Below are positions 30,465-50,133 of a DNA stretch of 56,335 nt, in pieces. The stretch's first letter is position 1. Every line of letters starts with the position of its first letter. The stretch lies in the NCBI GenBank assembly GCA_050177775.1, contig JBFXGS010000001.1:1-56335 (forward strand). The letters run 5' to 3'. The DNA comes from Bacilli bacterium. GTDB lineage: Bacteria; Bacillota_I; Bacilli_A; ML615J-28; CAG-698. Made by a program: the position numbers and the translations under genes. Under the pieces are notes generated by a model, which did not search any database, was not told where the DNA came from, and saw only the letters and a program-made list of their open reading frames with translations.

Positions 30465-31133
30465 ATGATGATGGAAAAAATAAAAAATCAGTTAATTGTT
30501 TCTTGTCAAGCTAAAGATAATGAACCATTAAAAGATCCAATGATTATGGCAAAGATGGCAGCATCGGCACTACTTGGGGGAGCAAAAGGCATTAGGGCAG
30601 CGGGCGTTGAAGATATTAAAGCCATTAAAGCATTTAACGATACGCTTGTTATCGGTTTAATAAAACGAAATTACCCTGATTCTGAAGTTTACATTACACC
30701 AACCAAAGTTGAAGTTTTAAAGTTGGTTGAAAGTGGTTGTGAAATAATTGCTCTCGATGGAACAAATCGTCACCGCCCCAATCAAGAAACTTTGGTAAGT
30801 TTAATCGTATTAATCCATGCCAACAATCGTTTAGCCATGGCAGATATTTCAACATTTGAAGAAGCTTTAATGGCGCAACAAGCAGGTGCTGATTGTATTT
30901 CCACAACTTTATCGGGATACACAAGTTATTCAAAGCAACAAGCGGGGCCTGATTTAAAATTACTTAGTAAATGTGTTGCAAAATTACAAATACCCGTGAT
31001 TGCGGAAGGACGGATTCGTAACCCTCAAGATTTGAAACGCGTTTTAAAGAAAAAACCTTTTGCAGTTGTCATCGGAACAGCGATTACGAGACCTTCAGAA
31101 ATCACCAAAACATTTGTGGAGTGCTTCAAATGA
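30465..31133 (+). CDS. nanE: N-acetylmannosamine-6-phosphate 2-epimerase
   Basis: 222 aa with the NanE pattern (LIVSCQA..EPL, IALDGT, ADIST, TTLSGYT, IAEGRI, VVIGTAITRP). Confidence 0.88.
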   Translation: MMMEKIKNQLIVSCQAKDNEPLKDPMIMAKMAASALLGGAKGIRAAGVEDIKAIKAFNDTLVIGLIKRNYPDSEVYITPTKVEVLKLVESGCEIIALDGTNRHRPNQETLVSLIVLIHANNRLAMADISTFEEALMAQQAGADCISTTLSGYTSYSKQQAGPDLKLLSKCVAKLQIPVIAEGRIRNPQDLKRVLKKKPFAVVIGTAITRPSEITKTFVECFK

Positions 31134-32773
31134 ACCGAAAAACTATTGTAGATTCAACCCATGATATATTGGCTTTTTGGAATCGTGAATTTGCGAACAA
31201 CTATCCTATTTCCGAACGCTTATTTAAAGAAAAGATTCTTAATTCAAAGGAAGTTGCTTTGGACGGATCGTATTCACTATATGACCAGGAAGAGTATATT
31301 GGCAGCGTTATTCTAAAATTTAACCAAATTAATGATAAAAAGCTTCAAGATAATGCTTATATTTCCTTTTTATTTGTGAATCCCAAATTTCGTAACCGCG
31401 GGTATGGTTCCCTTTTTATCAGTGATGTAATTCGTATTTGTATTGAAAATGAAAAATCAATGCTATACGTCGGCGGAGACAATGATTGTTTATTTTCGGG
31501 TGTTTTTTTAGATAACAATGATTTCGTTCATCAATTTTTTAAGGACCATCGGTTTAACATTGCTTATAAAAATTATAACTTAATATGTAAAACCTCACCC
31601 CAAGTACCAAATGATGAATATGAATATTCCACTTTAAAAACAGAAGAAGAACGAAACGAATTATTAAAACAAGTTCGCAAATTGTTTCCATCGCGTTGGC
31701 ATTATGATATTCAGAATTGTGAGCCGCAAGCGTTCTTCGTTGCGAAAGAAAACAAGGTAATTGTCGGGTTCGTTCGGTTAAACACTCCGCTTTTTTCACA
31801 AATTGCCAATAGTGTTAATACTTACCCTTTGTACAAAATGCTGGGAGGGATTGGACCGGTAGCCATTTTTCCCGAGAAAAAAGGCTCGGAACTAGCCAAC
31901 AACATCGTAAAACAAGCCGTAAAACATTTGTTTGATTTGGGTTGTTCAGAGGTAATAGTTGACTGGACAAACTTTATTGATTTCTTCAAGCAATCAGGAT
32001 TTTCCAATGTATCTAACTCCTATGTTCTTTACGAGATGCGCATTCGTGAAAAAATAAAAGGACCAAAAACGCATATCTATCAAGTTATCGAAAATGATTT
32101 GCGGCATGAAATCCTTGAAGGAAAATATAAACACGGGGACATTATTCCAAGTGAGGTGGAATTAGCGGCCACGTATAAAGTGACGAGAATGACTGTTCGT
32201 CAAGCCATTAGTAATTTGCTAATTGACGGCTTTCTTTATCGACATAAAGGCCGCGGGACTTTTGTAACTTACAACAAGCGGAACATTGATTTTGAGGATA
32301 AACCTTTCTTTTCTTTCACAAATGATAAAAATAATAACGGGGAATTAAGAACGACGGTTTTACTCTTTGAAATTAGAGCCGCTGATGAATTATTAGCCTT
32401 ACGTTTACAACTAAAATTAGGGGATCCTCTCTATTATGTGGAAAGACTGACTGCCCTAGAAAATAAGCCGTTGCTATTTGAAAGACTTTATCTTCCTGCT
32501 AATATGTATAATAATTTAAGCGTTGAAGTCTTTCAAAAATCATTTTATGAATATGCAAAAAACGAATTGCATTGGAATTTACTTTCCTACAATATCCATA
32601 TTGAGGCCAGAGGATTAAGTGGTCGAGCTGCGGAAGTGTTGCAATTATCAACGGGAGATCCAACTCTTTATTGCAGCAGTGTGACTCATTTAGCGAATGG
32701 ACGCGCCATTCTTTATTCTCGAACTTTCTTCAATGCCGAACAAGTAAACTTTTCTCATCAATTTTCTTGTTAA
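31130..32773 (+). CDS. Fusion protein: tandem GNAT-like domains + GntR/HutC-family wHTH + UTRA effector domain
   Basis: N-terminal roughly 310 aa has two GNAT-like cores (FVNPKFRNRGYGSLF; GPVAIFPEKKGSELANNIV). This is followed by IYQVIENDLRHEILEGKYKHGDIIPSEVELAATYKVTRMTVRQAISNLLIDGFLYRHKGRGTFV and a UTRA-like C-terminus. ATGA overlap with the nanE stop. Confidence 0.8.
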   Translation: MNRKTIVDSTHDILAFWNREFANNYPISERLFKEKILNSKEVALDGSYSLYDQEEYIGSVILKFNQINDKKLQDNAYISFLFVNPKFRNRGYGSLFISDVIRICIENEKSMLYVGGDNDCLFSGVFLDNNDFVHQFFKDHRFNIAYKNYNLICKTSPQVPNDEYEYSTLKTEEERNELLKQVRKLFPSRWHYDIQNCEPQAFFVAKENKVIVGFVRLNTPLFSQIANSVNTYPLYKMLGGIGPVAIFPEKKGSELANNIVKQAVKHLFDLGCSEVIVDWTNFIDFFKQSGFSNVSNSYVLYEMRIREKIKGPKTHIYQVIENDLRHEILEGKYKHGDIIPSEVELAATYKVTRMTVRQAISNLLIDGFLYRHKGRGTFVTYNKRNIDFEDKPFFSFTNDKNNNGELRTTVLLFEIRAADELLALRLQLKLGDPLYYVERLTALENKPLLFERLYLPANMYNNLSVEVFQKSFYEYAKNELHWNLLSYNIHIEARGLSGRAAEVLQLSTGDPTLYCSSVTHLANGRAILYSRTFFNAEQVNFSHQFSC

Positions 32774-32775
32774 CT

Positions 32776-32798
32776 AGTGCCATTAAATGGCACTTTTT
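32776..32798 (+). terminator. Intrinsic terminator ending the first operon
   Basis: AGTGCCAT-TAA-ATGGCACT hairpin followed by TTTT. Confidence 0.75.
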
Positions 32799-32802
32799 CA
32801 AT

Positions 32803-32836
32803 TTGTATATACAAGTTATTTTTTAAATGGTATAAT
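32803..32836 (+). promoter_or_regulatory. Promoter of the second operon with a perfect 12-bp palindrome operator candidate
   Basis: TTGTATATACAA (32803-32814) is a perfect palindrome overlapping the -35 region. TATAAT lies at 32831-32836. Confidence 0.6.
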
Positions 32837-32855
32837 TAAAAAAAGGAAGAGAAAT

Positions 32856-35090
32856 ATGAGGAAAATTTTTATGGCTTTTTTGTTAGCAACGCTTTTATCC
32901 GGGGTTAGTATTAATGCCGAAACCACTGCCATTGTTGATGATTTTTTAAACGGGAAGGATGTGGTCCGCTATGAAAACTATTTGGTTTATTATAGTTTCA
33001 ATTCGACTTTAAAATCACCTGCAAACCAATGGGGATATGAAATTGCGGTTAGCAGTAATCACTTTGTGATTGATTGTGACACAAACGCAACCATGGAAAC
33101 AGGAGGATATATCATATCCGGGCATGGGACGAAAAAAACGACGTTGCAAAATGTCAAAGTTGGTGATCAAGTTAGTATCAATTGGGAAACTAAACAAATC
33201 GTGATTACGCGCGATAGTTTGAAAAGCCCGCAATTTTTAGCTCATCGTTTTAAAACAACCTCGGAAAACTATTACAATCAAGCAATCGAGGGCGGATATG
33301 ACTTTAACAGAACGCTTGTTGAACATATGCTTAATTTAAATGATAATGATTTACTGCAGATTGATGCCATCGTTGAAAAAGAAAGTCCCACAAGCAATGA
33401 AATTGATTTGGTTAAGATACTGGCTGATGGCATTGATGCTAGGATGCTATCCATCAAGTTTTTAACTTCTTTCTCTTCAACTACGGAAATTAGAGCTTTA
33501 TGGCATCGACCCAATGCGGCAGGCATTAAAGAGAACAACTTAGAAAATTTAAAGGCGTTTGTGCAAGAAGTAAAGGACCTTGGGTTTAATACCATTTTTG
33601 TGGAGACGCTTTGGAATGGATATGTCAGTTATCGGTCGGATATCATTGCTACGCATCCGCAAGTTGCTAATTTTACCTATGGTGAAGAATATAAAAACGA
33701 TTATATTGCGGCTTTAATTGGTGAAAGTCAAAAATTAGGCATTGATGTTCATGCTTGGTGCCACACCTTTAATGCGGGGAATGCAACCTACAAAGCCACT
33801 TCCATTAAAGATGAATGGTTATTGGAAGATTATCAAGGACTTACTTTACATCCAAATAGTTATGGAGGCAGTTATTATTTAGATCCATCTAATCCGGAGG
33901 TACTGACTTACTTGACAAGCGTTTTTTCGGAAATGGTTGAAAAATACGATTTTGCGGGAATTCAATTAGATTACATACGTTATTATGATAATAATTATTT
34001 ACAAACGCCGATTCGTGATAGTGGTTACGGATTACTCCCGGAAACACAATTTAAAACAGAATATTCATTAACCGGTGATGTTCGAACCCTCATTAAACAA
34101 AACACCTATTTGGAATTATGGAATGAATGGCGCCAAAACAATGTAACCAATGCTGTTCGAACTTTTTCTTCGGCTTTAAGAAGGCTTAATCCGCAGATCA
34201 TCATATCCGCGGATGTTGTTTCGAGTATCAATTATGCGAAAAGTACATATATGCAAGACTGGAAAACATGGGTTGAAAAAGGATACATTGATTTATTATG
34301 CCCAATGATTTATACCGGAAGTGCCGAAACTATTGAAAAAGACTCGTTAGCGATAATGAATCAAATAAAAAACCTTTCGTTTTTAGCTTCAGGGATTGCT
34401 CCAATTTATTATGGGCATTCGTTAGAAATCAATCATGATGAATTCGTCGCAACAAAAAGCGGCGATGGTTTAGCCTTTTTTGCAAGCCAAAACATCGTTG
34501 GATTAAGTGATGTTACTCAATCAATTAAAACAGGGGTTTTTAGAAACACGGCAGTATCTCCGCTTCGAGAAACCAAATTGGTTATCACAGAAGCTTTGTT
34601 GAACTTGAAAAGCTATGTTGAAAAGGCGATGGCGAATGAACCGCAACAATTAATGTTTTTAAACCATGTCGAAGAAATGATGACAATGAAGTGTGATAAC
34701 CCGGCTGATTATCAAGCCCTTATGGAAAAAATGATTTTTGTAAGAACGATAACTCCGTACATCTCTTCTTCTTCAATGCGAGAAATATTCTCACAAGAAT
34801 TAACTCAATTAATTCATATTCTTGATGTGAAAATAAGTCGAGAAATGATTGCTTATGGTTTTTATAACCCTGATGATGAAGAAAGGCCCAATCCGGATCA
34901 ATTTGATTACCCAATCGATAATCCAGAACCCGAACCTGAACCGAAACCCGAGCCGGAACCAGAACCGGAACCCGAGCCTGAACCAGAGCCGGATGAAGAA
35001 AAAGGTTGTTTTAAAGTGTTTTCGTTTCCTTCTGTTTTGCTTCTTGGATTAATTTTTATCTTTATTCGAAAAAAAGAAAGAGGTTATTAA
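32856..35090 (+). CDS. Secreted, C-terminally anchored GHL10 (DUF187/YngK-like) glycoside-hydrolase-like protein
   Basis: Signal peptide MRKIFMAFLLATLLSGVSINA. GHL10-like core RALWHRPNAAGIKENNLENLKAFVQEVKDLGFNTIFVETLWNGYVSY ... GIQLDYIRY. C-terminal PE repeat, KGC, TM helix and RKKERGY tail. Start trimmed to ATG 32856. Confidence 0.75.
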   Translation: MRKIFMAFLLATLLSGVSINAETTAIVDDFLNGKDVVRYENYLVYYSFNSTLKSPANQWGYEIAVSSNHFVIDCDTNATMETGGYIISGHGTKKTTLQNVKVGDQVSINWETKQIVITRDSLKSPQFLAHRFKTTSENYYNQAIEGGYDFNRTLVEHMLNLNDNDLLQIDAIVEKESPTSNEIDLVKILADGIDARMLSIKFLTSFSSTTEIRALWHRPNAAGIKENNLENLKAFVQEVKDLGFNTIFVETLWNGYVSYRSDIIATHPQVANFTYGEEYKNDYIAALIGESQKLGIDVHAWCHTFNAGNATYKATSIKDEWLLEDYQGLTLHPNSYGGSYYLDPSNPEVLTYLTSVFSEMVEKYDFAGIQLDYIRYYDNNYLQTPIRDSGYGLLPETQFKTEYSLTGDVRTLIKQNTYLELWNEWRQNNVTNAVRTFSSALRRLNPQIIISADVVSSINYAKSTYMQDWKTWVEKGYIDLLCPMIYTGSAETIEKDSLAIMNQIKNLSFLASGIAPIYYGHSLEINHDEFVATKSGDGLAFFASQNIVGLSDVTQSIKTGVFRNTAVSPLRETKLVITEALLNLKSYVEKAMANEPQQLMFLNHVEEMMTMKCDNPADYQALMEKMIFVRTITPYISSSSMREIFSQELTQLIHILDVKISREMIAYGFYNPDDEERPNPDQFDYPIDNPEPEPEPKPEPEPEPEPEPEPEPDEEKGCFKVFSFPSVLLLGLIFIFIRKKERGY
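34924..34992 (+). repeat. Imperfect GAACCN hexanucleotide repeat encoding a (Pro-Glu)n linker
   Basis: Encodes PEPEPEPKPEPEPEPEPEPEPEP. A similar tract lies at 39367-39420. Confidence 0.85.
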
Positions 35091-36052
35091 TGAGCTTAAC
35101 AATAAAAGTAATACCGACTTTAGACAGTCAATATGTCGATAGTCGCAAGTTTCAAAACGCCAAAATTTATTATGGAAGTATCGACAATGAAATAAAAGCT
35201 CCCATTTCACCAAAGTGTTTTTTAGGAGCTTGGTACCGAAAAGTTTTTTCATCCTTTGACTATTGGCTTGGAATAGAAGGAGTTATAAAACTGGGAGAAT
35301 TTATTCCTGACAAAGCCCGTTTTAATCTTGATGGAAAAGGCCGATTTATGGATAATCCTTCAATATATATGGGTGGAAAGAGCCAAAAAGAAAGCGATGC
35401 TGGCCTAAACTTAAATCTTTCTTATCTTTCGTTTGATACCAAAGATGATTTGCAATTATCTTCGCCTAAAGTGGCTTACCGTCCTTTTTGGCGTTACATT
35501 TACAATATGGCAACGGATGAAAGCGGAAATGTGGATCGTCATGAAGTTAATTCATGGAACGTTCATAATCCCCGTCATTTGGGAAATTATTATTTTCCGG
35601 GTGATGTAATTAAAATGAGCGTATTTAGTCCGTTGAGGGACTATTTACAATTGCGAATTGATGTCATCGAACCGACCAACAATCCTAAATATGTGAAAAT
35701 ACGCAATAATTACAATTTGGAAAACAATTTACCAACATCATTTTTAAGTCCGCTGTTCTTTTCCAAAGGACATGGTTACGAAAAAGCAGAATTTAAAAGA
35801 GTGAACTCCATTGACCAATATGGCAACGAAGGATTTGTTGCCCAAAATACTAATGCTGAAGTTACGGAGGCTCTGTGGCAAGAAGTGTATTTATATCGGG
35901 AGATTAATGGGGAGATTTGTAAAATACCTTTTTTACAAAATCGCCAAACATCCATGATTTGTCCAAATACAGATGCGATAACCGTAAGGAATCATCCTTT
36001 TGACCCAACTGGGGAAACCATACAAATTCATCCCGGGAAAATTAATCTTTAG
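35090..36052 (+). CDS. Orphan 320-aa cytoplasmic protein, paralogue B
   Basis: Same length and colinear blocks as 27775-28737 (CFLGAWYRKVFSSFD, WLGIEGVI, ARFNLDGKGR, SIYMGGKS, AYRPFWR, FPGDV..MSV, SKGHGY..AEFKRVN, RQTSMICPN). TAATG overlap with the upstream stop. Confidence 0.6.
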   Translation: MSLTIKVIPTLDSQYVDSRKFQNAKIYYGSIDNEIKAPISPKCFLGAWYRKVFSSFDYWLGIEGVIKLGEFIPDKARFNLDGKGRFMDNPSIYMGGKSQKESDAGLNLNLSYLSFDTKDDLQLSSPKVAYRPFWRYIYNMATDESGNVDRHEVNSWNVHNPRHLGNYYFPGDVIKMSVFSPLRDYLQLRIDVIEPTNNPKYVKIRNNYNLENNLPTSFLSPLFFSKGHGYEKAEFKRVNSIDQYGNEGFVAQNTNAEVTEALWQEVYLYREINGEICKIPFLQNRQTSMICPNTDAITVRNHPFDPTGETIQIHPGKINL

Positions 36053-36062: not shown

Positions 36063-37565
36063 ATGAAAAAAATTTTATATATTCCACTTGATGAACGCCC
36101 TTGTAATTATGATTTTCCGAAAAGTATTTTTACAAGTTCCTCATACTCCGTCATTGTTCCACCCATTAGTATCATGGGTGATAAAAAAAATCCGGCTGAC
36201 CATGAAGCTTTAGAAACCTTTTTACTTGAAGAATCAAAGGAAGCGGATGGTTTAGTTATTTCTCTTGACACATTAATTTATGGTGGAATTGTGCCTTCGA
36301 GGCTCCATTATTTGGAAGCCTCTGTTTTGAAAGAAAGGTTATTGTTTTTAAAGAAAATCAAGCTAATTCACCCCCATTTACCCGTTTTTGCTTTTCAACT
36401 TATTATGCGTTGTCCTCAAAACAATTCGAGCGATGAAGAACCGGAATACTATAAACATGCAGGTCGGAATATTTATCTGCAAGGTTATTTTCAAAACAAA
36501 CAACAACTTGGCCTTCTCAGCGTTGATGAAGAAAAAATTTGGAAGACCATCACCATTGAGGATGCTTATTTAAATGATTTTCTAAGTCGAAGAGCTTTGA
36601 ATAAGCAAATTAACATTTTTGCGCTTGATTTGTTAGAACAAGGGACAATTGATTTTTTGGTTGTTCCTCAAGATGATGCCAGTGAATTTGGTTACACGGC
36701 AATGGATCAAGTTGATATTAGATCGGTAATTCGCCAAAAGCAACTAATGCTTAAAGCTTATATGTATCCTGGGGCCGATGAAGTTGGATGTATTTTAATG
36801 AGTCGGATGATTAACCATTTAGAAAATAAAAAGCCGGCCGTGTTTGTGAAATACCCATCCCCGACCACCCCGATGGTAATTCCTTGTTTAGAAGATCGCT
36901 ATGTCGATGTAACCATCAAATACCATATTGCTTGTGCCGGAGGAATTACGGTTCCTTCGCTGAGTGATGCCGATATTGTTTTGCTTCCCTTTTTAGGGGC
37001 AACCAAAATGATACCACACCCGAATAATGAAGCCAGTTTAGATGTTGATGTTATGTGCAATTTTGTGGAAATGATGGAGTTTGCGGAATATGCCATTAAA
37101 AAAGGCTATCCGGTTGCTATTGCTGATTTAGTTTATTTAAATGGTGGTTCTTTAGATATCTTAAATTTTCTTGAAAGCAAAGGATTAACCATGAGGGTTG
37201 CCGCTTATGCGGGATGGAATACCTCAAGTAATGCTTTAGGAACAGCCATTGCTCAAGCTATGCAGTTTTGGCATCAAGGATCTACCAAACTTCACCAAAC
37301 ATTTCTCATCAAGAGGTATGTCGAAGACGTGGGGTATTGTGGAGTAGTGCGAGAGAATGTTACCAAACAACTGGCAAAATATGGTATGGATTACTTTAAT
37401 GTGAAAGAAAAAAGCGGGCTTGCCGCCGATCTTGTCAAACAAGAACTAAACTTGTTCATTGAAGAATATCTTCCAAGCATTTCTAACCGATTCGCTTTGG
37501 AGGATGTTAATCTGCCATGGCGTCGAATGTTTGAAGTTGATTTCCAAGTCGTTCTAAAGGATTAA
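36063..37565 (+). CDS. DUF4127 family protein, paralogue 2
   Basis: 500 aa from MKKILYIPLDERPCNY. AGGAGAAAAGG RBS. The track ORF starts upstream inside the previous gene. Confidence 0.65.
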   Translation: MKKILYIPLDERPCNYDFPKSIFTSSSYSVIVPPISIMGDKKNPADHEALETFLLEESKEADGLVISLDTLIYGGIVPSRLHYLEASVLKERLLFLKKIKLIHPHLPVFAFQLIMRCPQNNSSDEEPEYYKHAGRNIYLQGYFQNKQQLGLLSVDEEKIWKTITIEDAYLNDFLSRRALNKQINIFALDLLEQGTIDFLVVPQDDASEFGYTAMDQVDIRSVIRQKQLMLKAYMYPGADEVGCILMSRMINHLENKKPAVFVKYPSPTTPMVIPCLEDRYVDVTIKYHIACAGGITVPSLSDADIVLLPFLGATKMIPHPNNEASLDVDVMCNFVEMMEFAEYAIKKGYPVAIADLVYLNGGSLDILNFLESKGLTMRVAAYAGWNTSSNALGTAIAQAMQFWHQGSTKLHQTFLIKRYVEDVGYCGVVRENVTKQLAKYGMDYFNVKEKSGLAADLVKQELNLFIEEYLPSISNRFALEDVNLPWRRMFEVDFQVVLKD

Positions 37566-37566
37566 C

Positions 37567-39507
37567 ATGAAAAAGTTAACGTTTATTCTTTGCTTTATTT
37601 TTGTTGTTTTGTTCTTTGTTTTTTTTAGAGTTAACACTTTTGCTCACTCGATGAGTGTTGAGAAAAATGACACGATTAAAAGTGGGACAGTTATACCAGG
37701 AATAACTTACGAAAGCTTTTCGGGAATGACAATAAATGATGCCCAAACCACCAGCAATCAAAGAATTAGTTGGGTGAAAAAATCCGCAAGTGCTCATGCG
37801 AAAATAGTTTCCTGGAGTAAACTAAAAGAAAACGGCATTGAAGGCGCGAACCTATTAAATCTGGCAAGTGATTTTGAGAGTAAAAATCCAGGATGGCGAG
37901 TGCTTGCCGGAATTAATGGGGACTATTACGACCCGACGACTAAAACGCCCGTGAATGCCCTTGTACAACAAGGTGATGTTGTAAAAGGAACAAACTTTAC
38001 ATTATCGAGATATTTTTCAATTGGCTTTAACGATGATAGCACTGGCTATGTAACATCGAAAACCAATGTTTTAGAAACAAAGTACGCTTTAACGATTTAT
38101 GATGAATCAAGGACTCGGGTTATTCTGGAAGTGGAACTTCAAGGATTAAACACGTATCCTAACAGCAAACAGACAAGTGTTTATTATAATAGTCAATATC
38201 CTTATCAAATTCCTAATGCCCGTTATTTTCGTGTAAATGATTTAGATTATGCCATCAATTACGGGTCTTATTTATTTAAAGGAAAAGTCAATGAAGAAGT
38301 AAATAATACCGAAACCCATTTAGGACAATTAGTGATCGCATCTTTAGATGAACGTGTTCAATATTTACTTGAAAAAAATCCATATATCCGGGTTCAAAAG
38401 CATTTAAAAGATGTCAATAACGGTTATGACAATATTATTGGAGTCGGAAGTCAACCTCTAAAAGATGGGACAATCTTAGAATTTTCCGAAATAAATGACC
38501 AAAATCTTGATTTCGCAAAACTTCGTGCACCGCGTTCTTCAATTGGCTTTACCCATGACGGCAGTTTTGTGATGGCTACCATGGATGGAAGGCAGTCGTT
38601 AATGGCCGGAGTTGACTTACGAGAAGAAGCCATGGTTATGGCATCTTTGGGGTGCCATCAAGCCTTTAATTTAGATGGTGGGGGATCAACCCAGTTAATT
38701 GTTCGAGAAAATGATCAATTGGTGATGTTAAACTCGCCTTCCGAAATCTATCGGAATAATGCCAATGGGGTTTTAATAGTGGAACCCGATGTTGATATTG
38801 AGGTTGACATTTCCCATTTATCTTTTTCATCGCTTGACTTACAATACTCTTTGGTGCCGCAAACCGGGGTGAATATTATAAGCCATTCTTTATATGCTAA
38901 TAATGTTCCGATAACAACGAGCCCAGAAACGATTACCATTGATTCTTTAATTTATTCGGGAATTAATTATTTGTCTTTGGTTGTGAAATACGAAAAACAA
39001 GGATTTATTTATGAACGATGTTTGTGGGTTGAACGAATAAATCTTGCTAATTATGGACTTGTTGAACCTATTGTTAAGGAAAAGCCCCATGATTTTACGG
39101 TTGTATTTGAAAAAGATGAAACTATCAAGGGCTTTACCGCGGTTATTAATTTTGATGATCCCGATAACACAATCACAAAACTTTATTTAGCATATGAAGG
39201 TAATGAAGAAATCGCCTTAAAAAGAATCAACGGGTATGAAGTCGATTTTTATAATGTTGAAAATAATTCATCTTTTTCTTTTTCGATTATTTATTATTAT
39301 CGAATTAACACGATAAATGCGGTATCGGAAACTTATGAAACTTTGTTTCCTTATGTTTATCAAGCGGAAACAGAGCCCGAGCCTGAACCTGAACCTGAAC
39401 CAAAACCAGAACCGGAAACTAAAGGTTGTTTATCTTGGGAAACACTATTACCTATTTCGCTTTTGATGTTAGGTTTTGGATGGTTTAAGAGGAGGAAACA
39501 TGAATAG
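37567..39507 (+). CDS. Secreted, C-terminally anchored phosphodiester glycosidase (NAGPA/DUF2233 domain) protein
   Basis: Signal peptide. Motifs GINGDYYD and RSSIGFTHDGSFVMATMDGRQ...GVDLREEAMVMASLGCHQAFNLDGGGSTQLIV, typical of the NAGPA domain. Also a C-terminal beta-rich region, PE repeat, KGC, TM helix and KRRKHE tail. Confidence 0.8.
   Translation: MKKLTFILCFIFVVLFFVFFRVNTFAHSMSVEKNDTIKSGTVIPGITYESFSGMTINDAQTTSNQRISWVKKSASAHAKIVSWSKLKENGIEGANLLNLASDFESKNPGWRVLAGINGDYYDPTTKTPVNALVQQGDVVKGTNFTLSRYFSIGFNDDSTGYVTSKTNVLETKYALTIYDESRTRVILEVELQGLNTYPNSKQTSVYYNSQYPYQIPNARYFRVNDLDYAINYGSYLFKGKVNEEVNNTETHLGQLVIASLDERVQYLLEKNPYIRVQKHLKDVNNGYDNIIGVGSQPLKDGTILEFSEINDQNLDFAKLRAPRSSIGFTHDGSFVMATMDGRQSLMAGVDLREEAMVMASLGCHQAFNLDGGGSTQLIVRENDQLVMLNSPSEIYRNNANGVLIVEPDVDIEVDISHLSFSSLDLQYSLVPQTGVNIISHSLYANNVPITTSPETITIDSLIYSGINYLSLVVKYEKQGFIYERCLWVERINLANYGLVEPIVKEKPHDFTVVFEKDETIKGFTAVINFDDPDNTITKLYLAYEGNEEIALKRINGYEVDFYNVENNSSFSFSIIYYYRINTINAVSETYETLFPYVYQAETEPEPEPEPEPKPEPETKGCLSWETLLPISLLMLGFGWFKRRKHE
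39367..39420 (+). repeat. Imperfect GAACCN hexanucleotide repeat encoding a (Pro-Glu)n linker
   Basis: Encodes ETEPEPEPEPEPKPEPET, immediately before AAAGGTTGT (KGC). Confidence 0.85.
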
Positions 39508-41011
39508 AATCATTTATGTTCCCCTTGATGAACGTCCCTGTAATTATCGATTTCCTTTTCAAATATTTAATCAAAAAAACACGGAAATAATTACTTGTCC
39601 AGAACATTTGATGGGTTATAAAAAGCGACCGGCCCAAATCAACCAACTTAATGAATGGTTAATGATCAATACTAAGCATGCTTATGGTTTGGTTGTTGCC
39701 CTAGATACACTTATTTATGGAGGAATTGTACCCTCACGACTCCATAATTTGCCTTTAGATGTGTTAATAAGTCGATTAACTATTTTAAGAAGTTTGAAAA
39801 AACAAAATCCTAATTTGATTATATATGGATTTTCCTTAATTATGCGATGCCCCGAGTATAATTCTGCCGATGAAGAACCGGAATACTTTCAAAACCACGG
39901 AAAAAACATTCACCTTTTGGGTTATTTGTCCCACATGAAAGAATTAAACATTCTTAGTAAATCCGATCAAGAAAAACTTGATAATATCCAAATCCCCAAG
40001 GAATACATCGATGATTTTTCACATCGTCGTTATGTTAACCAACAAATTAATATCGCTGCATTAGAGCTTGTGAAAGAAGAAATCATTACCTTTTTCACAA
40101 TTCCTCAAGATGATTCTTCAAAGTATGGTTGGACGGCCAAAGATCAAATCAAGATTAGAGAGGTTATAAAAAAACATAAACTGTTTAAGAAAGTTTTTAT
40201 GTATCCTGGTGCGGATGAAGCTGGTTGTGTTTTACTCAGTCGAATGGTTTGTCTTAACAATCATCTTCAACCGAAAGTATATATTAAATACCCCGGTCCC
40301 ACTTGTTCGAAAATAATCCCCTCCATCGAAGATCGCTATTTGGATACGATGGTAAAATACCACATTATTGCTTGTGGCGGGATAGTAGTTGATGCTTTAA
40401 AGGAATGTGATGCGGTTTTATTGATCAATGCTCCTGCAGATTACATGCGCTCCTCATTTAATAAAGAAGAACCCGGCCGGGGACTGGAAGTTCAGAGAAA
40501 CCTTGTTGAAGCCATCGAGTTTATTGAATACGTGGGCCAAAAACAAAAAGCCATTATTATTGGCGATATTACTTATGGAAATGGCAGTGATTTAGAAATT
40601 TATCATTATTTATCTTTAAAGAAAATGCTTTTTAAACTGGCGGGTTTTGGAGGATGGAACACAGCTTCCAACAGTATCGGGCAAGCCATCGCCATGGGTT
40701 TTTCGTGCTTGCTAAACGGGTTTACCAAACAACATTTAGCTTTTTTAATCAGCCGCTATGTTGAAGATATCGGTTATTGTGGTTATGTTCGTCAAACAAT
40801 TATGAAGGACTTTTTGCCTAGACATCCTCAGTTAAACTATTTCGATGTAAAAAGCAAAGCCGGAATCGTCGCAACAGAAGTTAAGGATCAATTAAAGTTG
40901 TTTGTACAAACCAAAATGCCTGATTTATGGCCCCACATTATTATTAAGAAAGTTGAATTACCTTGGAAACGCATGTACGAAATCGATTTAGAGGTTGAAT
41001 ATCGACCCTAA
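39500..41011 (+). CDS. DUF4127 family protein, paralogue 3
   Basis: 503 aa from MNRIIYVPLDERPCNY. AGGAGGA RBS. 8-nt overlap with the upstream gene. Roughly 45-50 percent identical by eye to paralogue 2. Confidence 0.65.
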   Translation: MNRIIYVPLDERPCNYRFPFQIFNQKNTEIITCPEHLMGYKKRPAQINQLNEWLMINTKHAYGLVVALDTLIYGGIVPSRLHNLPLDVLISRLTILRSLKKQNPNLIIYGFSLIMRCPEYNSADEEPEYFQNHGKNIHLLGYLSHMKELNILSKSDQEKLDNIQIPKEYIDDFSHRRYVNQQINIAALELVKEEIITFFTIPQDDSSKYGWTAKDQIKIREVIKKHKLFKKVFMYPGADEAGCVLLSRMVCLNNHLQPKVYIKYPGPTCSKIIPSIEDRYLDTMVKYHIIACGGIVVDALKECDAVLLINAPADYMRSSFNKEEPGRGLEVQRNLVEAIEFIEYVGQKQKAIIIGDITYGNGSDLEIYHYLSLKKMLFKLAGFGGWNTASNSIGQAIAMGFSCLLNGFTKQHLAFLISRYVEDIGYCGYVRQTIMKDFLPRHPQLNYFDVKSKAGIVATEVKDQLKLFVQTKMPDLWPHIIIKKVELPWKRMYEIDLEVEYRP

Positions 41012-41103: not shown

Positions 41104-44100
41104 ATGTCAAACATTAAAAAATTTCTATTTTTCCTAAGTTTAATCATTGTGGTGTTTTCGCTCACAGCTTGTAAACCCAAGGATACGGAAAAACCAAGCT
41201 TAGTGATTCCATCGCCAACGATTACTCATGTTGTTAATGAAGATGTTGACTTGCTAGAAGATATCACAGCAACAGATAATGTATCAGTTGCAGCCGATAT
41301 TACGATTGAAATATCTGATTTAGGCGGATATGACAAAACAAAAGTCGGCAATTATACCGTTACGATTAAAGCGACGGATAAAGCAGGCAACTTCATTACG
41401 CGAACGATTACTGTTAATGTAACCGAAGCGCCAATTTTGGATACTGTTGCTCCAACGTTAACAATAGGCAAACCAAGCATCACCCATGAGGTCAATGCCA
41501 CTGTCAATCTATTAGCCGATGTTACGGCAACAGACAATATTGATGCTGCCAACGACATTACCATTAGCATTTCTAATTATAATGGCTATGACAAGAGCGT
41601 TGCAGGAACTTATGTCATCACGGTAAAAGCGACGGACAAGAGTAACAACTTCTCGACCGCGACGATTACCGTAATTGTGAAAGATGATGTTTTGCCACCG
41701 ATGGTGACAGGAGCAGTAACAACCATTACGCAACTAGCTGGCGAAACGGTTGACCTGACAAAAGGTTTAACCGGTGTTGACAATAAAGATGGCGTTAATG
41801 TTATTTTTACAGTCACCAATCTTAAAGATTATAACAAAGATGTTCCCGGAACATACACCGTCGAAATCACCGCGTCCGACTCATCCGACAACCATGGCGT
41901 TCCTTTTAACCGCACAGTTGTTGTGGAAGAGGGGTATGCTCGTGCCGAAATGACTTCATTTGCTGGTGATACAATTCGTTACCAAGCTCTTTATAACCCA
42001 CAAATCATGAATAGTAATACGGCAACCGGTTATAACTCGGCTTATGATGGTCATTATGTTAATGTTCTTTCTAAAGAATACTTGGAATGGATCATTGAAT
42101 ACGCCCCTGAGCGTTTAGGAGCCGGTGTCGGTTGGAGCGTTATTGCTGTGACTGATTCTACGGATAAAATTGTTTATGTTCGCCATTGGAATAGTGGTGA
42201 AGCTTACCACGATGCTCAAGGAAATTTAGTTTCGGCAAAATCAGTTAACTGGTCAACGGGAACTATTCGCACATGGACGGAAGAAGTCGGTGGCCAAACC
42301 GTCGGCATGTCTAATGCGAAATACAGTTCAGCCGAAATGGGCATGATGATGGCCAATATTAATGAATGGGTTCCTGAAGGCGGACATGTTTTCATCTTCC
42401 TTAACTGGACAACGATTGGTGAAGATGAATCAGGCAATTTAATCAGCATCGCTAACTCAGCAACCATGCCTCGTTCAATGGGTGCTAATTACATTATGTC
42501 AAGTGATGAAAATGGCGATGATGTCATGGATTATGCCATTGGAAGAACTTTAAAAATTCTTGATAAACAATTGACCGATAATACTATTCGTCAAAGTTTT
42601 GATCCCGCTAATCCTTTCCCAATTATTTCGATTCCTAGTGTTCGTTATGTCACATCAACCGGAATTTGGAAGAACCGTTATACAGAAACAGTTTATTTGG
42701 ATGAATTCAATCAAACAAATCCATACAACCCTTTAAATGGCGTTTTTGCAAATGACGGAAAAGGAACCGACATTACTTCTTCAATTACATATAAAATCTT
42801 CCGTTATCAAACAACGGAACAAGCTTATGGATTATTGACTTCGCTCGCGATCGATGACCCACGTTGGGCGTATTATGTCGATGCTGCGGAATTATGGAAG
42901 AAGGAAGAAAATGAAGTAACCCTTGAACAAGTGATGGTTGATGCCAATAATGATTATCATTTTGTCGTTCAATACCAAGTTACCGCTAATGGCCATACCG
43001 ATACCGCTTATAAACTTATTCAAATAAAAGCGCAAGTTCCAGACTATATTGATTTATATGGAGCAACGGACTCGGTTTTCTCAGAAGCCATGGGACTTCA
43101 ACAACGTTTGGATATGAATCCAAATCTTGAAAACTTTGGTTCGATGACAACCACCGAAAAAGGGATTATTTATACCGCTTCGGCTTTCAAAGCATTAACT
43201 GTTTTCCCAGCCTTGGAAAAAGGCGTTGTTGTCGTCGTTGATCCGTTCTATCGCATTCAATTGATAAGAATCGTAAATGGAATAGCTTTTGAATTGGATG
43301 GAACAGGGACAGCCAAAACAACGGATTTAACTTGGATTTCAAGTCAAATGTTAGCCGGGTTAGATACGTTAGTTCCTGCCGGTGGATATGTCATGATTTA
43401 TCCGGAAGGACTTAATGGCGCTGTTCTCACAAAAGCTTTAAAAGCTTATTATGATTATGGTTATCAATCAGGAGTTTTAACAGAAGCTTTGCCTACTAAT
43501 GGAAAAGTTTCGGTTGAAATGATTATCAAAGAAGTCAAAGAAGTATCGACGTTCATCGTTAATGATGTGGCTCCACAGATTAACATTAACAATGCTTTAA
43601 CAAACATCTTTGCTGTGGAAAACAATAAAGCATCATTAGTGTTCTCTTCTGCAGGTGGTGGAGCGGGTTTCCGTTTGGATACCGGCAAAGCATACTACTA
43701 TACGAAAGCAGACTATGCTGTTTTATCACAACACACTGATGTTGTTTCTTCGTTCACAACTTTAAGTCCTAACAAAGGTGTGCCTTGGTTCCGTGACGGT
43801 GTCATTATCGTAGTTGATGCGAGTGGAAAATTTGTTCAAGCTCGCGTAATGACCACATCCGCTGCCGCTGAAATCCATGTTGACGGAACGGTTGTTTACG
43901 GAAATGCTGCGGTTGTAGCTTTAAGTGAAACGGCCAAAGCGGCTGCTGGTCAAGCTAACCTGACATGGGATTTAGTGCTTCCAAATGCCGCTAACACGGT
44001 TGCCCATGGACCGCTTGCGGATATTCAATCGGTTATTCCTGAAGGTGGAGCATTCTATATTCTTCCGGGTACCGCCAATACGGCCGTTCGAAATTATGCC

Positions 44101-46485
44101 ATTCAATTAGTTTGGAACAATGCCTACCCTGGAAGTGGAATCATTGTTGATGGCACCTTAGCTGAACAACCGGCCGGCAATCCAAGCCCAGCGACCAATG
44201 GTTTTGATTTCACAAACTATACCGCTGCTTACTTTGCAGGATTAACCTTTAAAGTTCAATTTGTTTCGACAGTTACGGCAAAACCAGCTAAAATTGCTCG
44301 TCCGGTTGCAACGATTACCGATAACATTTTAGCTTGGGAGCAAGCAACAAATGCCGGAAGTTATGATGTTTATGTTGATGGCGTTTTGAAAGCCGCCAAT
44401 GTCGGCACATTAGTAACGGATACAACAACTTATAATTATGATTTACGTTTATTAAAATTAGATGATCAAGTACATACCATTCAAGTTCGTGCGATTACCG
44501 CAAACGTCCAAACGGCTGCCACTTCGGTTTTATCGGATCCCGTCAGCGTTCAATTCATTGCGCTTACCACTCCGGAAAACTTAGTGGTTAACGATACCGT
44601 TCTTTCTTGGGGCGTTGTTGATAAAGCCGCAACTTATGAAATTTGGGTCAATGATGTTTTAGTCGGCACATCGGAAACCAATAGTTTTGACTTAAAAGAC
44701 TTCTTTGGTTCTTCAACAAAAGATGTTCAAGTAAAAGCTTTACCGGGTGATGCTGATAAAATGTATGTGGCTTCGCCATTAACCGAAAAATTCCCATTTG
44801 GTGAACCAACGACGACTTATTTAACATTAACGCTTGAAACGCAACATGTCACACACACGACGGTTGATGAATGGATGATTAAGCGTAATGTTACCGTTCC
44901 TAATGGTGGTTTCTCGGGTTCAAATGAAATCTTCTTAATTGAAGACGCTTTTGCTTTCACAAGCTATGCGACCCCAACCGGAGTAATCACTGCCAACGGG
45001 ACCTTCTTATTGTTCGGTGCGGACGGTAAATTAAAAGCGGTTCGGACCATTATCAATAATCATCAATGGTTAGCAACCAACGATCCGCAAGTCAACAACG
45101 GTTGGACGACTTTAACCGGAGTAACCGCGGGGCAAGTAAAAGTTCAAGAAGTTACCCCGTTATTAGCTGAAGGCGACTTTATCCTTGTCACCACTGCGGG
45201 AACAAGCAAGCAAGAAGGAGCAACCTTAAATGCTCGTGATTTCTTAGCTTATCACTTTATGGGTTCTTGGGATACAACCATTGCCAGCGGTGAAATTTGG
45301 CGTAAGACGATTGATCAATTCATTAATCCATCAACAGTTACTTATAAATTATCGACTTACCCGGTTACTTATTACCTAAGTTTAGCTTTGGAAAGTCAAC
45401 ATATTACTTACACGACGGTTGATGAATGGATGATTAAGCGTAATGTTACCGTTCCTAATGGTGGTTTCTCTGGTTCAAATGAAATCTTCTTAATTGAAGA
45501 CGCTTTTGCTTTCACAAGCTATGCGACCCCAACCGGAGTAATCACTGCCAACGGGACCTTCTTATTGTTCGGTTCGGACGGTAAATTAAAAGCGGTTCGG
45601 ACCATTATCAATAATCATCAATGGTTAGCAACCAACGATCCGCAAGTCAACAACGGTTGGACGACTTTAACCGGAGTAACCGCGGGGCAAGTAAAAGTTC
45701 AAGAAGTTACCCCGTTATTAGCTGAAGGCGACTTTATCCTTGTCACCACTGCGGGAACAAGCAAGCAAGAAGGAGCAACCTTAAATGCTCGTGATTTCTT
45801 AGCTTATCACTTTATGGGTTCTTGGGATACGACCATTGCCAGCGGTGAAATTTGGCGTAAGACGATTGATCAATTCATTAATCCATCAACAGTTACTTAT
45901 GCTGTTGTCGGACGTCCGTATGTTAACAAACTGGCTTTAACTTTAGAGAGTCAACAAATAACTTATACGACGGTTGATGAATGGATGATTAAACGTAATG
46001 TTGTGGTAGCCGATGGCGGCTTTGCCGGATCAACCAGTATTTTCTTCATCGAAGATGCTTTTGCTTTCACAACCTTTGCAACGCAAACAGCCTTTGTCAC
46101 GGTTAACGGGACTTTACTATTATTTGGAGCGGATAACAAACTTAAAGCAATCCGAACCATTATCAATAATCATCAATGGTTAGCAACCAACGATCCGCAA
46201 GTCAACAACGGTTGGACGACTTTAACGGGAATAACTTCCGGTCAAGTAAAAGTTCAAGAAATAACCCCGTTATTAGCAGAAGGCGATTACATTATTCTTT
46301 CGAATAATGTTACTACCAAACAAGCCGGTGCTACTTTAAATCCAAGAGATTTCTTAGCTTACCACTTTATGGGTTCTTGGGATACAACCATTGCCAGCGG
46401 TGAAATTTGGCGTAAGACGATTGATCAATTCATTAATCCATCAACAGTTGCTTTTGCCATTAAGAAAGTCGTTGTTACTTTCTAA
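41104..46485 (+). CDS. Giant surface lipoprotein (1793 aa) with Ig-like, FN3-like and repeated unassigned domains
   Basis: Lipobox LTAC at the N-terminus. Three roughly 90-aa Ig-like (DUF5011-like) repeats, two FN3-like modules and three C-terminal 185-aa tandem repeats. AAGGAGGAAA RBS. Confidence 0.85.
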   Translation: MSNIKKFLFFLSLIIVVFSLTACKPKDTEKPSLVIPSPTITHVVNEDVDLLEDITATDNVSVAADITIEISDLGGYDKTKVGNYTVTIKATDKAGNFITRTITVNVTEAPILDTVAPTLTIGKPSITHEVNATVNLLADVTATDNIDAANDITISISNYNGYDKSVAGTYVITVKATDKSNNFSTATITVIVKDDVLPPMVTGAVTTITQLAGETVDLTKGLTGVDNKDGVNVIFTVTNLKDYNKDVPGTYTVEITASDSSDNHGVPFNRTVVVEEGYARAEMTSFAGDTIRYQALYNPQIMNSNTATGYNSAYDGHYVNVLSKEYLEWIIEYAPERLGAGVGWSVIAVTDSTDKIVYVRHWNSGEAYHDAQGNLVSAKSVNWSTGTIRTWTEEVGGQTVGMSNAKYSSAEMGMMMANINEWVPEGGHVFIFLNWTTIGEDESGNLISIANSATMPRSMGANYIMSSDENGDDVMDYAIGRTLKILDKQLTDNTIRQSFDPANPFPIISIPSVRYVTSTGIWKNRYTETVYLDEFNQTNPYNPLNGVFANDGKGTDITSSITYKIFRYQTTEQAYGLLTSLAIDDPRWAYYVDAAELWKKEENEVTLEQVMVDANNDYHFVVQYQVTANGHTDTAYKLIQIKAQVPDYIDLYGATDSVFSEAMGLQQRLDMNPNLENFGSMTTTEKGIIYTASAFKALTVFPALEKGVVVVVDPFYRIQLIRIVNGIAFELDGTGTAKTTDLTWISSQMLAGLDTLVPAGGYVMIYPEGLNGAVLTKALKAYYDYGYQSGVLTEALPTNGKVSVEMIIKEVKEVSTFIVNDVAPQININNALTNIFAVENNKASLVFSSAGGGAGFRLDTGKAYYYTKADYAVLSQHTDVVSSFTTLSPNKGVPWFRDGVIIVVDASGKFVQARVMTTSAAAEIHVDGTVVYGNAAVVALSETAKAAAGQANLTWDLVLPNAANTVAHGPLADIQSVIPEGGAFYILPGTANTAVRNYAIQLVWNNAYPGSGIIVDGTLAEQPAGNPSPATNGFDFTNYTAAYFAGLTFKVQFVSTVTAKPAKIARPVATITDNILAWEQATNAGSYDVYVDGVLKAANVGTLVTDTTTYNYDLRLLKLDDQVHTIQVRAITANVQTAATSVLSDPVSVQFIALTTPENLVVNDTVLSWGVVDKAATYEIWVNDVLVGTSETNSFDLKDFFGSSTKDVQVKALPGDADKMYVASPLTEKFPFGEPTTTYLTLTLETQHVTHTTVDEWMIKRNVTVPNGGFSGSNEIFLIEDAFAFTSYATPTGVITANGTFLLFGADGKLKAVRTIINNHQWLATNDPQVNNGWTTLTGVTAGQVKVQEVTPLLAEGDFILVTTAGTSKQEGATLNARDFLAYHFMGSWDTTIASGEIWRKTIDQFINPSTVTYKLSTYPVTYYLSLALESQHITYTTVDEWMIKRNVTVPNGGFSGSNEIFLIEDAFAFTSYATPTGVITANGTFLLFGSDGKLKAVRTIINNHQWLATNDPQVNNGWTTLTGVTAGQVKVQEVTPLLAEGDFILVTTAGTSKQEGATLNARDFLAYHFMGSWDTTIASGEIWRKTIDQFINPSTVTYAVVGRPYVNKLALTLESQQITYTTVDEWMIKRNVVVADGGFAGSTSIFFIEDAFAFTTFATQTAFVTVNGTLLLFGADNKLKAIRTIINNHQWLATNDPQVNNGWTTLTGITSGQVKVQEITPLLAEGDYIILSNNVTTKQAGATLNPRDFLAYHFMGSWDTTIASGEIWRKTIDQFINPSTVAFAIKKVVVTF
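44815..46482 (+). repeat. Three tandem 555-bp direct repeats inside the giant lipoprotein gene
   Basis: Anchor ACGACGGTTGATGAATGGATGATTAA at 44857, 45412 and 45967 (period 555). Copies 1 and 2 differ at 3 of 489 core positions. Copy 3 is diverged but contains blocks identical to copies 1 and 2. Confidence 0.95.
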
Positions 46486-46553: not shown

Positions 46554-47216
46554 ATGAAATTTGAAAAATTATTTAATAGCAAATTTTATATGTTTTTTGA
46601 ATGGATATATCGACTAATCCTAGTTAACTTATTATTTATCCTATGCTCTTTGCTTGGCTTAGTCATCTTTTCGATAATTCCCGCTTTCATTGCGATGACA
46701 ACCATAATCAAATCATATTCTTCCGACACCAATTTTCCGATTGTGAAAACATTTTGGCGCATCTTTATAAAACACTTTAAACAAAATCTTAATTTATCGT
46801 TGGTTTTTCTATTCTTGTTTTTGATATTTATTTTCAACACCTATTTTTTCTTCCTCGGTTGGCAAGAATATCAAGCCTTAATCAATGAGATAATCTTTAA
46901 TTTCACTCTTGTTTTAGATGGAGTAATGATTGTAGCATTTATTAATGCCATTTTTGTGAGAGTTTATTTTCCTAACTTAAATACCAAGAAAACCATTAAA
47001 TATGCCTTTGTTTTATTGAGAGCGCTACCCTTACCATTTGTTTTTATTTTCTTATTATTAATAATCGAATCAATTATCATTTATTATTTTCCCTACTATT
47101 TAATTATTTTAGGTTTTTCTTTATTGATGCTCATTATCAATACATTGATTAAAACGAAATATCAAAAATTGGTTGCTGAAGGAGTAGTTTCTCTTCAAGC
47201 CCAAGATTATGTTTAG
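46554..47216 (+). CDS. DUF624 (YesL-like) membrane protein, second copy
   Basis: 220 aa. LILVNLLFILCSLLGLVIFSIIPAFIAM pattern. GGAGGAAGAG RBS. Confidence 0.7.
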   Translation: MKFEKLFNSKFYMFFEWIYRLILVNLLFILCSLLGLVIFSIIPAFIAMTTIIKSYSSDTNFPIVKTFWRIFIKHFKQNLNLSLVFLFLFLIFIFNTYFFFLGWQEYQALINEIIFNFTLVLDGVMIVAFINAIFVRVYFPNLNTKKTIKYAFVLLRALPLPFVFIFLLLIIESIIIYYFPYYLIILGFSLLMLIINTLIKTKYQKLVAEGVVSLQAQDYV

Positions 47217-47235
47217 AGAACAAGGAGGTGGACTT

Positions 47236-50130: not shown

Positions 50131-50133
50131 GAA

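Follow-up and report, generated by a model that had tools for sequence, protein, structure and literature searches.

Three DUF4127 paralogues of a Bacilli bacterium share a family-wide invariant core consistent with an enzyme active site

What does a protein family of uncharacterised function do when a bacterium keeps three copies of it close to sugar importers and surface glycosidases? The question is raised by positions 1 to 56,335 of contig JBFXGS010000001.1, from the Bacilli bacterium assembly GCA_050177775.1. We call this stretch of 56,335 nucleotides the window. It holds three genes of the DUF4127 family (PF13552). An earlier interpretation, made from the DNA letters and called here the sequence-only reading, had proposed that their products share a set of motifs suggestive of an enzyme active site. 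The conserved residues, a predicted alpha/beta fold, the gene fusions and the gene context all support this proposal. That the conserved site is catalytic, we infer from the fusions and the context.

The three open reading frames (ORFs) are present on the strands and at the positions first described. Paralogue 1 (21026-22492, minus strand) encodes 488 amino acids, paralogue 2 (36063-37565, plus strand) 500, and paralogue 3 (39500-41011, plus strand) 503. Each product matches PF13552 from end to end. The E values are 1.3e-100 (residues 6-484 of paralogue 1), 1.1e-142 and 1.7e-144. The respective bit scores are 337.7, 476.6 and 482.5, against a gathering score of 27 bits, and the matches run from position 1 or 2 to position 488 or 489 of the 489 in the profile. 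With E values between 1e-100 and 1e-144, the profile hidden Markov model (HMM) confirms the membership. PF13552 is the sole Pfam match below an E value of 0.001 in the three proteins, and no NCBIfam model was found for them. The NCBI entry identical to paralogue 3 is already named "MAG: DUF4127 family protein [Bacilli bacterium]". The three genes are, then, additional members of a catalogued and uncharacterised Pfam family, and not a new kind of object.

The ATG starts at 36063 and 39500 match the N-termini of homologues. The longer ORFs that begin with TTG (36000 and 39476), produced by mechanical ORF calling, do not. None of the three proteins presents a signal peptide or a hydrophobic segment, in agreement with the cytoplasmic location assigned to them before. 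Paralogues 2 and 3 are 45% identical, and paralogues 2 and 1 only 25%. As described earlier, paralogue 1 is much more diverged and is transcribed divergently. Despite this low identity, it retains all the residues that are invariant in the family.

A three-way alignment recovers every motif block that the sequence-only reading had listed. These are PLD(E/S)RPCNY, D(T/S)LI(Y/S)GG..SR, (P/L)Q(D/E)D, G(A/T)DE..C, GWNT(A/S)SN..G, RY(V/I)(E/D)D or ERIIDD, and (L/F)PWxR(M/A)(F/Y)E. It also reveals elements that had been overlooked: an invariant EDR (277-279, numbering of paralogue 2 here and below) and the isolated invariant residues R116, R177, D355 and N360.

Are these residues conserved beyond the window? 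A profile search of 1.84 billion cluster representatives (E up to 1e-3) found 2,412 DUF4127 clusters at 50% identity. The family occurs in at least 570 species-level GTDB genome stretches, mostly of Bacillota. We aligned 147 sequences, namely 144 representatives of the 50%-identity clusters and the three paralogues. Ten residues are invariant in all 147 (D10, R12, R80, R116, R177, D205, D239, E277, N386 and N390), and all ten are present in the three paralogues. Another eight are conserved in at least 98% of the sequences: G74, D355, N360, W385, T387, G393, W486 and R488. The pair G74-G75 is among the core positions that are invariant or nearly so. Homologues of 25-27% identity, namely a Bacillus phage copy, a Deinococcus plasmid copy and several secreted proteins, keep the core as well.

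The cysteines behave differently. The sequence-only reading had named Asp, Cys, Arg and Asn as invariant. The Asp, Arg and Asn residues hold across the 147 sequences and in distant homologues, whereas the invariance of Cys holds in this window alone. C14 is cysteine in 128 of 147 sequences; elsewhere Val, Pro, Ser or Tyr takes its place in members that are intact in other respects. At C243, cysteine is found in 39 of 147 (27%). A cysteine nucleophile is therefore not indicated, and we rejected a cysteine hydrolase on the replacements of C14. No His, Lys, Ser or Cys is invariant in the alignment, and no Lys is invariant among the positions conserved at 90% or more. The carboxylates, the arginines and the asparagines are thus the sole catalytic candidates. 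A Zn-dependent deacetylase or amidase was discarded, as no His is invariant.

We modelled paralogue 2 with AlphaFold2 using an alignment of 68 sequences. The model has a predicted local distance difference test (pLDDT) score of 96.1 and a predicted template modelling (TM) score of 0.94. It is a confident alpha/beta fold and not a structural repeat. About 11 strands alternate with helices, with a helical insert of 60 residues (130-192) and a C-terminal beta-hairpin. Most of the invariant residues come immediately after a strand or lie in a loop that connects two elements. D10 and R12 follow strand 1, R116 strand 4, D205 strand 5, and D239 strand 6. D355 is the end of the 351-355 strand, N386 follows the 381-383 strand, and W486 and R488 lie in the hairpin loop. 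R177 is the exception, being inside the helical insert. Alpha/beta enzymes usually carry their catalytic residues after strands and in loops.

No solved structure resembles this model. Foldseek against the PDB gave no genuine match, with TM scores of 0.27 or lower among the best 50 hits. The top hits were xylose isomerases, with an E value of 1.3e-4, TM scores of 0.19-0.23 and root-mean-square deviations (rmsd) of about 19-20 A. The model shares with the xylose-isomerase-like TIM barrels the alternating beta/alpha pattern. Unlike them, it has about 11 strands, the 60-residue insert and the C-terminal hairpin. An assignment to the (beta/alpha)8 barrel was rejected, as a TM score near 0.2 and an rmsd of about 19 A give no real superposition. 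Sequence and profile searches of the PDB with DUF4127 returned no matches and no solved structure. Likewise, 68 DUF4127 members compared with Pfam at E values up to 10 showed no recurrent second family. The predicted fold looks enzyme-like, without a solved relative.

The gene neighbourhood suggests a pathway. We took 79 loci from GTDB species genomes and clustered the ORFs of 86 loci. For the neighbour shares, we used the 48 loci that are 19 kb or longer and counted genes up to 10 kb away from DUF4127. ATP-binding cassette (ABC) permeases are present in 77% of these loci, NanE and RpiR in 60% each, a PF12831 FAD-oxidoreductase in 58%, a solute-binding protein in 54%, and a ROK kinase in 50%. 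Two clusters of GHL10 proteins are found in 38% and 21%, GH20 in 25%, and GH84 in 17%. The recurrent order is solute-binding protein, permease, permease, DUF4127, sometimes the flavoprotein, NanE, RpiR and ROK. Counting the genes that directly abut 94 DUF4127 genes gave 24 permeases, 23 NanE and 21 PF12831 flavoproteins. Some loci hold NagA and NagB, named from reading the sequence and not by HMM. Others add CE2 or SGNH esterases, GNAT/NAT acetyltransferases, a PHP phosphoesterase, or a GFO/IDH/MocA protein paired with a xylose-isomerase-like one. Searches with approximate query sequences found a NanA-type lyase in one of the 86 loci and MurQ in none.

Ten long representatives of the family are fusions. 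Five join DUF4127 to ROK, and one each joins it to NanE, GHL10, a GDSL esterase, an alpha/beta-hydrolase and PF12831. In one operon, the ROK kinase is about as near to solved N-acetylmannosamine (ManNAc) kinases as to glucokinases. Regarding the flavoprotein, it adjoins DUF4127 or is fused to it in about half of the loci (for example L001, L003, L005 and L092), and a PDB sequence search matches its N-terminal FAD-binding stretch only.

Plasmids carry variants of the locus. On the Carnobacterium plasmid pCAR50, the order is NanE, a HAD-IIB phosphatase, DUF4127, a IIC component of the lactose/cellobiose phosphotransferase system (PTS) family and MurR/RpiR, without a kinase. The IIC component scores 361 bits with TIGR00410, against a cutoff of 236. 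The substrates of this PTS family are beta-linked disaccharides, which become phosphorylated as they enter the cell, so that a kinase would not be needed. The arrangement suggests that DUF4127 can act on a phospho-disaccharide, passing ManNAc-6-phosphate (ManNAc-6-P) to NanE. A Priestia plasmid holds DUF4127 with two ROK proteins, an acetylxylan esterase, a Glc-family PTS, NanE and RpiR. A Deinococcus plasmid holds nagZ, a binding protein, a GH20-like protein, permeases, the flavoprotein and DUF4127. Among solved structures, MsBP (6wpm, E 1.5e-49) comes nearest to the binding protein of a Paenibacillus operon; this homologue has an unusual positively charged cleft and a preference for phosphorylated sugars (PMC8938411).

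Some members of the family would act outside the cell. Several carry signal peptides, always with C14 replaced. One secreted DUF4127 gene is directly upstream of that of a 1544-aa SLH protein, and another is near NamZ. The Bacillus cereus phages BC01 and PBC6 (Herelleviridae) encode a 693-aa protein in which a full DUF4127 domain (E 8e-98) precedes C-terminal SLH domains. The gene is BC01_099 in BC01 (5995-8076 of locus L091), and the same gene is found in PBC6. Almost all the invariant residues of the phage domain are intact, and this protein is the sole real match in the viral structure library (TM 0.81). SLH domains bind the pyruvylated ManNAc of secondary cell-wall polymers. The phage protein would therefore be tethered to a polymer of ManNAc and N-acetylglucosamine (GlcNAc). 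Possibly it belongs to the virion or serves in lysis, directed at the polymer that anchors the S-layer.

Which reaction would join these observations? We know of no enzyme that provides a NanA-independent route to ManNAc. The loci hold no known ManNAc-producing enzyme and DUF4127 is their constant unknown; consequently we propose it for the step that releases ManNAc from a glycoside. The extracellular and phage-tethered forms point to action on glycosides and not purely on an intracellular phosphosugar. DUF4127 would be a carboxylate-based enzyme that cleaves the glycosidic bond in anionic wall-polymer fragments of the ManNAc-GlcNAc type. We give this reading a probability of about 0.4. Our confidence is moderate for the role in the pathway and low for the exact reaction.

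The proposed route begins at the cell surface. There, the NAGPA and GHL10 proteins would cut anionic wall glycopolymers of other bacteria, for example teichoic-acid linkage units or secondary cell-wall polymers built on ManNAc-beta-1,4-GlcNAc. The ABC importers would bring the fragments in, and GH84 would take off beta-GlcNAc. DUF4127 would then split the ManNAc-containing glycoside, possibly in a 6-phosphate, pyruvyl-ketal or phosphodiester-substituted form. The product, ManNAc or ManNAc-6-P, would be converted by NanE to GlcNAc-6-phosphate, for NagA and then NagB. D10, D205, D239, E277 and D355 are the candidates for the acid/base carboxylates. The invariant arginines R12, R80, R116, R177 and R488 may hold the negatively charged group of the substrate, whether a 6-phosphate, a pyruvyl carboxylate or a phosphodiester.

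Several observations weigh against glycoside cleavage of this kind. After NanE, PF12831 is the tightest enzymatic partner of DUF4127, yet it has no role in a simple hydrolase model. The window lacks the flavoprotein, ROK and PTS, which leaves the phosphorylation step unaccounted for here. Five invariant arginines are uncommon in a glycosidase, and they would fit a phosphoesterase too. The polymer itself might be another: the characterised GHL10 relative Cwp19 cleaves peptidoglycan glycans (PMC6016235), and by analogy with this activity the target could be peptidoglycan and not a ManNAc polymer. The clades of paralogues 2 and 3 differ only subtly near the invariant residues, so we claim no separate specificities for the paralogues. 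Finally, the searches gave no structural or sequence relative with an assigned function, and cleavage of the glycoside remains a proposal from sequence comparison.

These points give room to other reactions. DUF4127 might remove an acidic substituent and leave the glycosidic bond uncut. As a ketal hydrolase, for example, it would free ManNAc from its 4,6-pyruvyl group, with ManNAc and pyruvate as a NanA-like output. Ketal and glycoside hydrolysis share carboxylate acid catalysis, and the arginines could bind the pyruvyl carboxylate. The phage SLH fusion and the secreted copy beside the SLH protein would place the enzyme on a pyruvylated polymer, and NanA is nearly absent from the loci. Moreover, a 2019 review of pyruvylated glycoconjugates lists no ketal-removing or catabolic enzyme for pyruvylated ManNAc polymers (PMC6801904), which would leave the removal step vacant. 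Nevertheless, the PTS variant and the ROK fusions point to a substrate whose 6-phosphate is either present already or added, at a position that a 4,6-ketal would block. The loci with NAGPA or GDPD indicate phosphodiester and not pyruvylated polymers, and a separate glycosidase would still be needed to release ManNAc. For these reasons we regard the ketal hydrolase as unlikely. We hold as quite unlikely a metal-dependent phosphoesterase that removes phosphate or glycerophosphate from imported phospho-oligosaccharides of the teichoic-acid type. Its attraction is the cluster of invariant Asp and Glu with five Arg, which resembles an Mg/Mn site for phosphoryl transfer; the surface phosphodiesterases NAGPA and GDPD among the neighbours and the preference of the binding-protein homologue for phosphorylated sugars (PMC8938411) go in the same direction. 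Such an enzyme would be redundant where separate HAD or PHP phosphatases adjoin DUF4127, and in the ROK fusions it would make a futile pair of kinase and phosphatase. No phosphatase family appeared in the HMM or fold searches, and this reading does not account for a pathway that needs NanE but holds no ManNAc-releasing enzyme.

The frequent flavoprotein could also be taken as the key. DUF4127 would then be the non-redox eliminase or hydratase partner of PF12831 in a cleavage by oxidation and elimination, in which the stereochemistry at C2 is lost and ManNAc-type products arise. The adjacency in 21 of the 94 genes, the fused representative and the minimal cassettes with DUF4127 and an importer favour this, as do the xylose isomerases at the top of the Foldseek hits (E about 1e-4). 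Some loci also carry the GFO/IDH/MocA protein with the xylose-isomerase-like TIM barrel, a pair typical of 3-keto-sugar elimination pathways. On the other hand, the TM scores of 0.19-0.23 and the rmsd of about 19 A mean that the fold is not shared. The flavoprotein is missing in 42% of the full-length loci, including this window with its three paralogues, and the phage and secreted copies have no such partner. We find this eliminase distinctly improbable. An etherase-like lyase is, in our estimation, very improbable. It would act on peptidoglycan N-acetylmuramic acid (MurNAc) or MurNAc-6-phosphate and free lactate, giving a manno product that needs NanE. It requires a free reducing end and an intracellular phosphosugar, hard to fit with secreted and SLH-anchored phage forms that have the same residues, and the lactose/cellobiose-type PTS indicates a disaccharide. 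Speaking for it are the peptidoglycan-cleaving relatives of GHL10 (PMC6016235), the MurR/RpiR regulators beside the lack of MurQ in 86 loci (approximate query), the secreted copy near NamZ, and arginines that could bind carboxylate and phosphate. A non-enzymatic protein for binding, scaffolding or regulation would agree with the lack of homology to any enzyme. We find it scarcely credible, given that some 20 polar residues stay unchanged across Bacillota, Deinococcus and phage, that the fusions are always to enzymes of one pathway, and that secreted and SLH-tethered forms exist. A phosphorylase was thought unlikely, with no phosphomutase in any locus.

The proposed glycoside cleavage by DUF4127 has parallels among known systems. 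MupG and NamZ resemble it in operon logic only, with no homology detected. MupG, the former DUF871, is a 6-phospho-N-acetylmuramidase of family GH170 (PMC6262408). It is likewise a former DUF beside a sugar importer and MurR/RpiR, and it splits an imported anionic wall disaccharide into a product of the N-acetylhexosamine (HexNAc) 6-phosphate type, which passes directly to amino-sugar catabolism. The difference lies downstream, where DUF4127 is followed by NanE and not MurQ, implying a manno and not a muramic product. No DUF871 match appeared among the 68 DUF4127 members (Pfam, E up to 10) or the best 50 Foldseek hits in the PDB. NamZ, the former DUF1343, is an exo-beta-N-acetylmuramidase of family GH171 (PMC8054146). 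It was an uncharacterised DUF in a wall-recycling locus that later proved to be an exo-glycosidase for an acidic HexNAc. Homology to NamZ was rejected, with an hhalign probability of 0.1% against its sequence and no NamZ Pfam matches. So was homology to GHL10 (PF02638), with a probability of 0.15%; in the fusion P0164, GHL10 is a separate domain joined to DUF4127.

The third parallel is NanA. DUF4127 holds the same operon slot, after the importer and before NanK (ROK) or NanE, with an RpiR regulator and O-acetyl esterases nearby. Whereas NanA, a class I aldolase, has a Schiff-base lysine, DUF4127 has no invariant Lys and no DHDPS match in Pfam. Its neighbours GH20, GH84, GHL10, NAGPA and GDPD point to HexNAc wall polymers and not to sialoglycans. 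We therefore rejected DUF4127 as a NanA replacement on sialic acid, since it has no invariant Lys or His and its neighbours are HexNAc-ases and wall-polymer enzymes. Literature searches found no paper that names DUF4127 or PF13552, none that names an N-acetylmannosaminidase, and nothing useful on PF12831.

The fixed place of DUF4127 between the sugar importers and NanE/NanK would define a NanA-independent ManNAc route. If the proposed cleavage is true, it would account for the recycling or scavenging of wall polymers that contain ManNAc, both the teichoic-acid linkage units and the SLH-binding secondary cell-wall polymers. CAZy would gain a family with a new fold, and a means by which phages attack the S-layer anchor in the Bacillus cereus group would be identified. 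A wider claim looks doubtful to us. It holds that DUF4127 founds a new glycoside-hydrolase family with a fold unrepresented in the PDB, and is the first (phospho- or pyruvyl-) beta-N-acetylmannosaminidase. Its target would be the ManNAc-beta-1,4-GlcNAc core that teichoic-acid linkage units have in common with SLH-binding secondary cell-wall polymers. With it, bacteria would feed on the walls of their neighbours, and Bacillus cereus phages, using the SLH fusion, would breach or strip the S-layer anchor. The residues listed above are targets for mutagenesis, and the operons point to candidate substrates.

How old are the copies? A neighbour-joining tree places paralogue 2 in one clade with the NAGPA-preceding copies of the related loci L007, L014 and L008. 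Paralogue 3 falls with copies from L007, L014, L005, L019 and L031 that stand before the gene of a surface Ig protein or of GDPD. Paralogue 1 is an outlier. The duplication of paralogues 2 and 3 therefore appears older than the divergence of these genomes and kept thereafter. Near the invariant positions, the two clades differ by conservative changes only (A206S, L276I, G362S, L392I and F490Y). Distinct specificities had been considered for them, and the claim was dropped on these five subtle changes.

The arrangement in the window agrees with that of the related genomes, where DUF4127 copies alternate with surface NAGPA, GHL10 or GDPD. As the sequence-only reading had noted, paralogues 2 and 3 flank the gene of a surface-anchored NAGPA-type phosphodiester glycosidase (37567-39507, plus strand; PF09992, E 6.8e-28). 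The junctions are tight. The gene of c12b, a cytoplasmic beta-sandwich protein (35090-36052, plus strand), ends 10 nt upstream of paralogue 2. A gap of 1 nt separates paralogue 2 from NAGPA, and the start of paralogue 3 overlaps the NAGPA stop by 8 nt. Downstream of paralogue 3 is the gene of a 1793-aa surface lipoprotein with Ig-like domains (41104-46485, plus strand; lipobox leader, weak InlK_D3 and Bact_surface_Ig-like matches). This lipoprotein is conserved 3' of the second DUF4127 copy in L005, L007 and L014.

Paralogue 1 stands alone on the minus strand as a monocistronic gene. It is followed by a terminator-like hairpin (20981-21005, minus strand) with an 11-bp stem, 6 GC pairs among them, and then a T run. 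A promoter-like site (22565-22593, plus strand) faces the opposite way, toward the long plus-strand operon. It consists of TTGACT, a 17-nt spacer and TATAAT, with 11 of 12 matches and an extended -10 TG. The operon begins with the solute-binding protein of ABC sugar importer 1 (22677-26672, plus strand), made of this lipoprotein (SBP_bac_1/8, with a lipobox-like leader), a DUF624 membrane protein and two permeases (BPD_transp_1). Importer 2 (46554-52046, plus strand) comprises DUF624, a 973-aa solute-binding protein with a leader and two permeases, all with Pfam matches. The locus (22677-54216) thus has two importer sets, yet neither an ABC ATPase gene nor a ROK kinase or PTS is present in the whole 56-kb window, and the PF12831 flavoprotein is also absent. 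The 20 kb at the 5' end hold housekeeping genes and no sugar kinase. Energising of the importers and phosphorylation of the sugar must therefore rely on genes elsewhere.

Between the two importers, the plus strand encodes further enzymes. A GH84 beta-N-acetylglucosaminidase (28752-30455; PF07555 NAGidase, E 8.5e-85) is cytoplasmic, and NanE, the N-acetylmannosamine-6-phosphate 2-epimerase, follows at 30465-31133 (PF04131, E 3.4e-59; PRK01130, 292 bits against a cutoff of 189). Like the DUF4127 and c12 proteins, neither has a leader. An unusual fusion of two Acetyltransf_1 domains with GntR and UTRA (GNAT-GNAT-GntR/UTRA; 31121-32773) is probably the regulator and acetyltransferase of the locus. 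In Clostridia, cytoplasmic GHL10 carries the same type of GNAT as a fusion partner (for example 7820-9973 of L063). Such fusions are a hint that de-N-acetylated amino sugars are re-acetylated in the pathway.

The surface-anchored GHL10 glycosidase-like protein (32787-35090, plus strand; PF02638, E 5.3e-34) shares its anchoring design with NAGPA. Both have a signal peptide, a Glu-Pro spacer, (EP)n, and a C-terminal transmembrane helix as anchor, without LPXTG, SLH or LysM. The design would suit a wall-less or thin-walled host, similar to Acholeplasma, that feeds on the walls of other bacteria.

Two small ORFs (26672-27761, plus strand) between the permeases of importer 1 and c12a have no confident family. 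One encodes 141 aa with three hydrophobic segments. The other encodes 230 aa with faint PEP_hydrolase-like and nucleoside-transporter matches. The gene of c12a (27775-28737, plus strand) has no Pfam match and falls in the same BLAST cluster as that of c12b. Both proteins are cytoplasmic, of about 320 aa, and are paralogues with 62% identity. We rejected c12 as a short relative of DUF4127, an idea raised by the likeness of IPT(L/Y)DS and IPLDERP, as the hhalign probability was 0.3%. None of the 247 homologues of the c12 family has a Pfam domain. They are apparently confined to metagenome-assembled genomes (MAGs) that are Acholeplasmatales-like or labelled "Bacilli". Related loci also hold lipoprotein forms of c12, of about 450 aa. 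The AlphaFold2 beta-sandwich of c12b (pLDDT 94.9) is nearest to YncM/CPAVM1, the eqolisin glutamic peptidases, neprosin and the HC7 glycopeptidase, and then to GH16. In the loci examined, c12 adjoins DUF4127.

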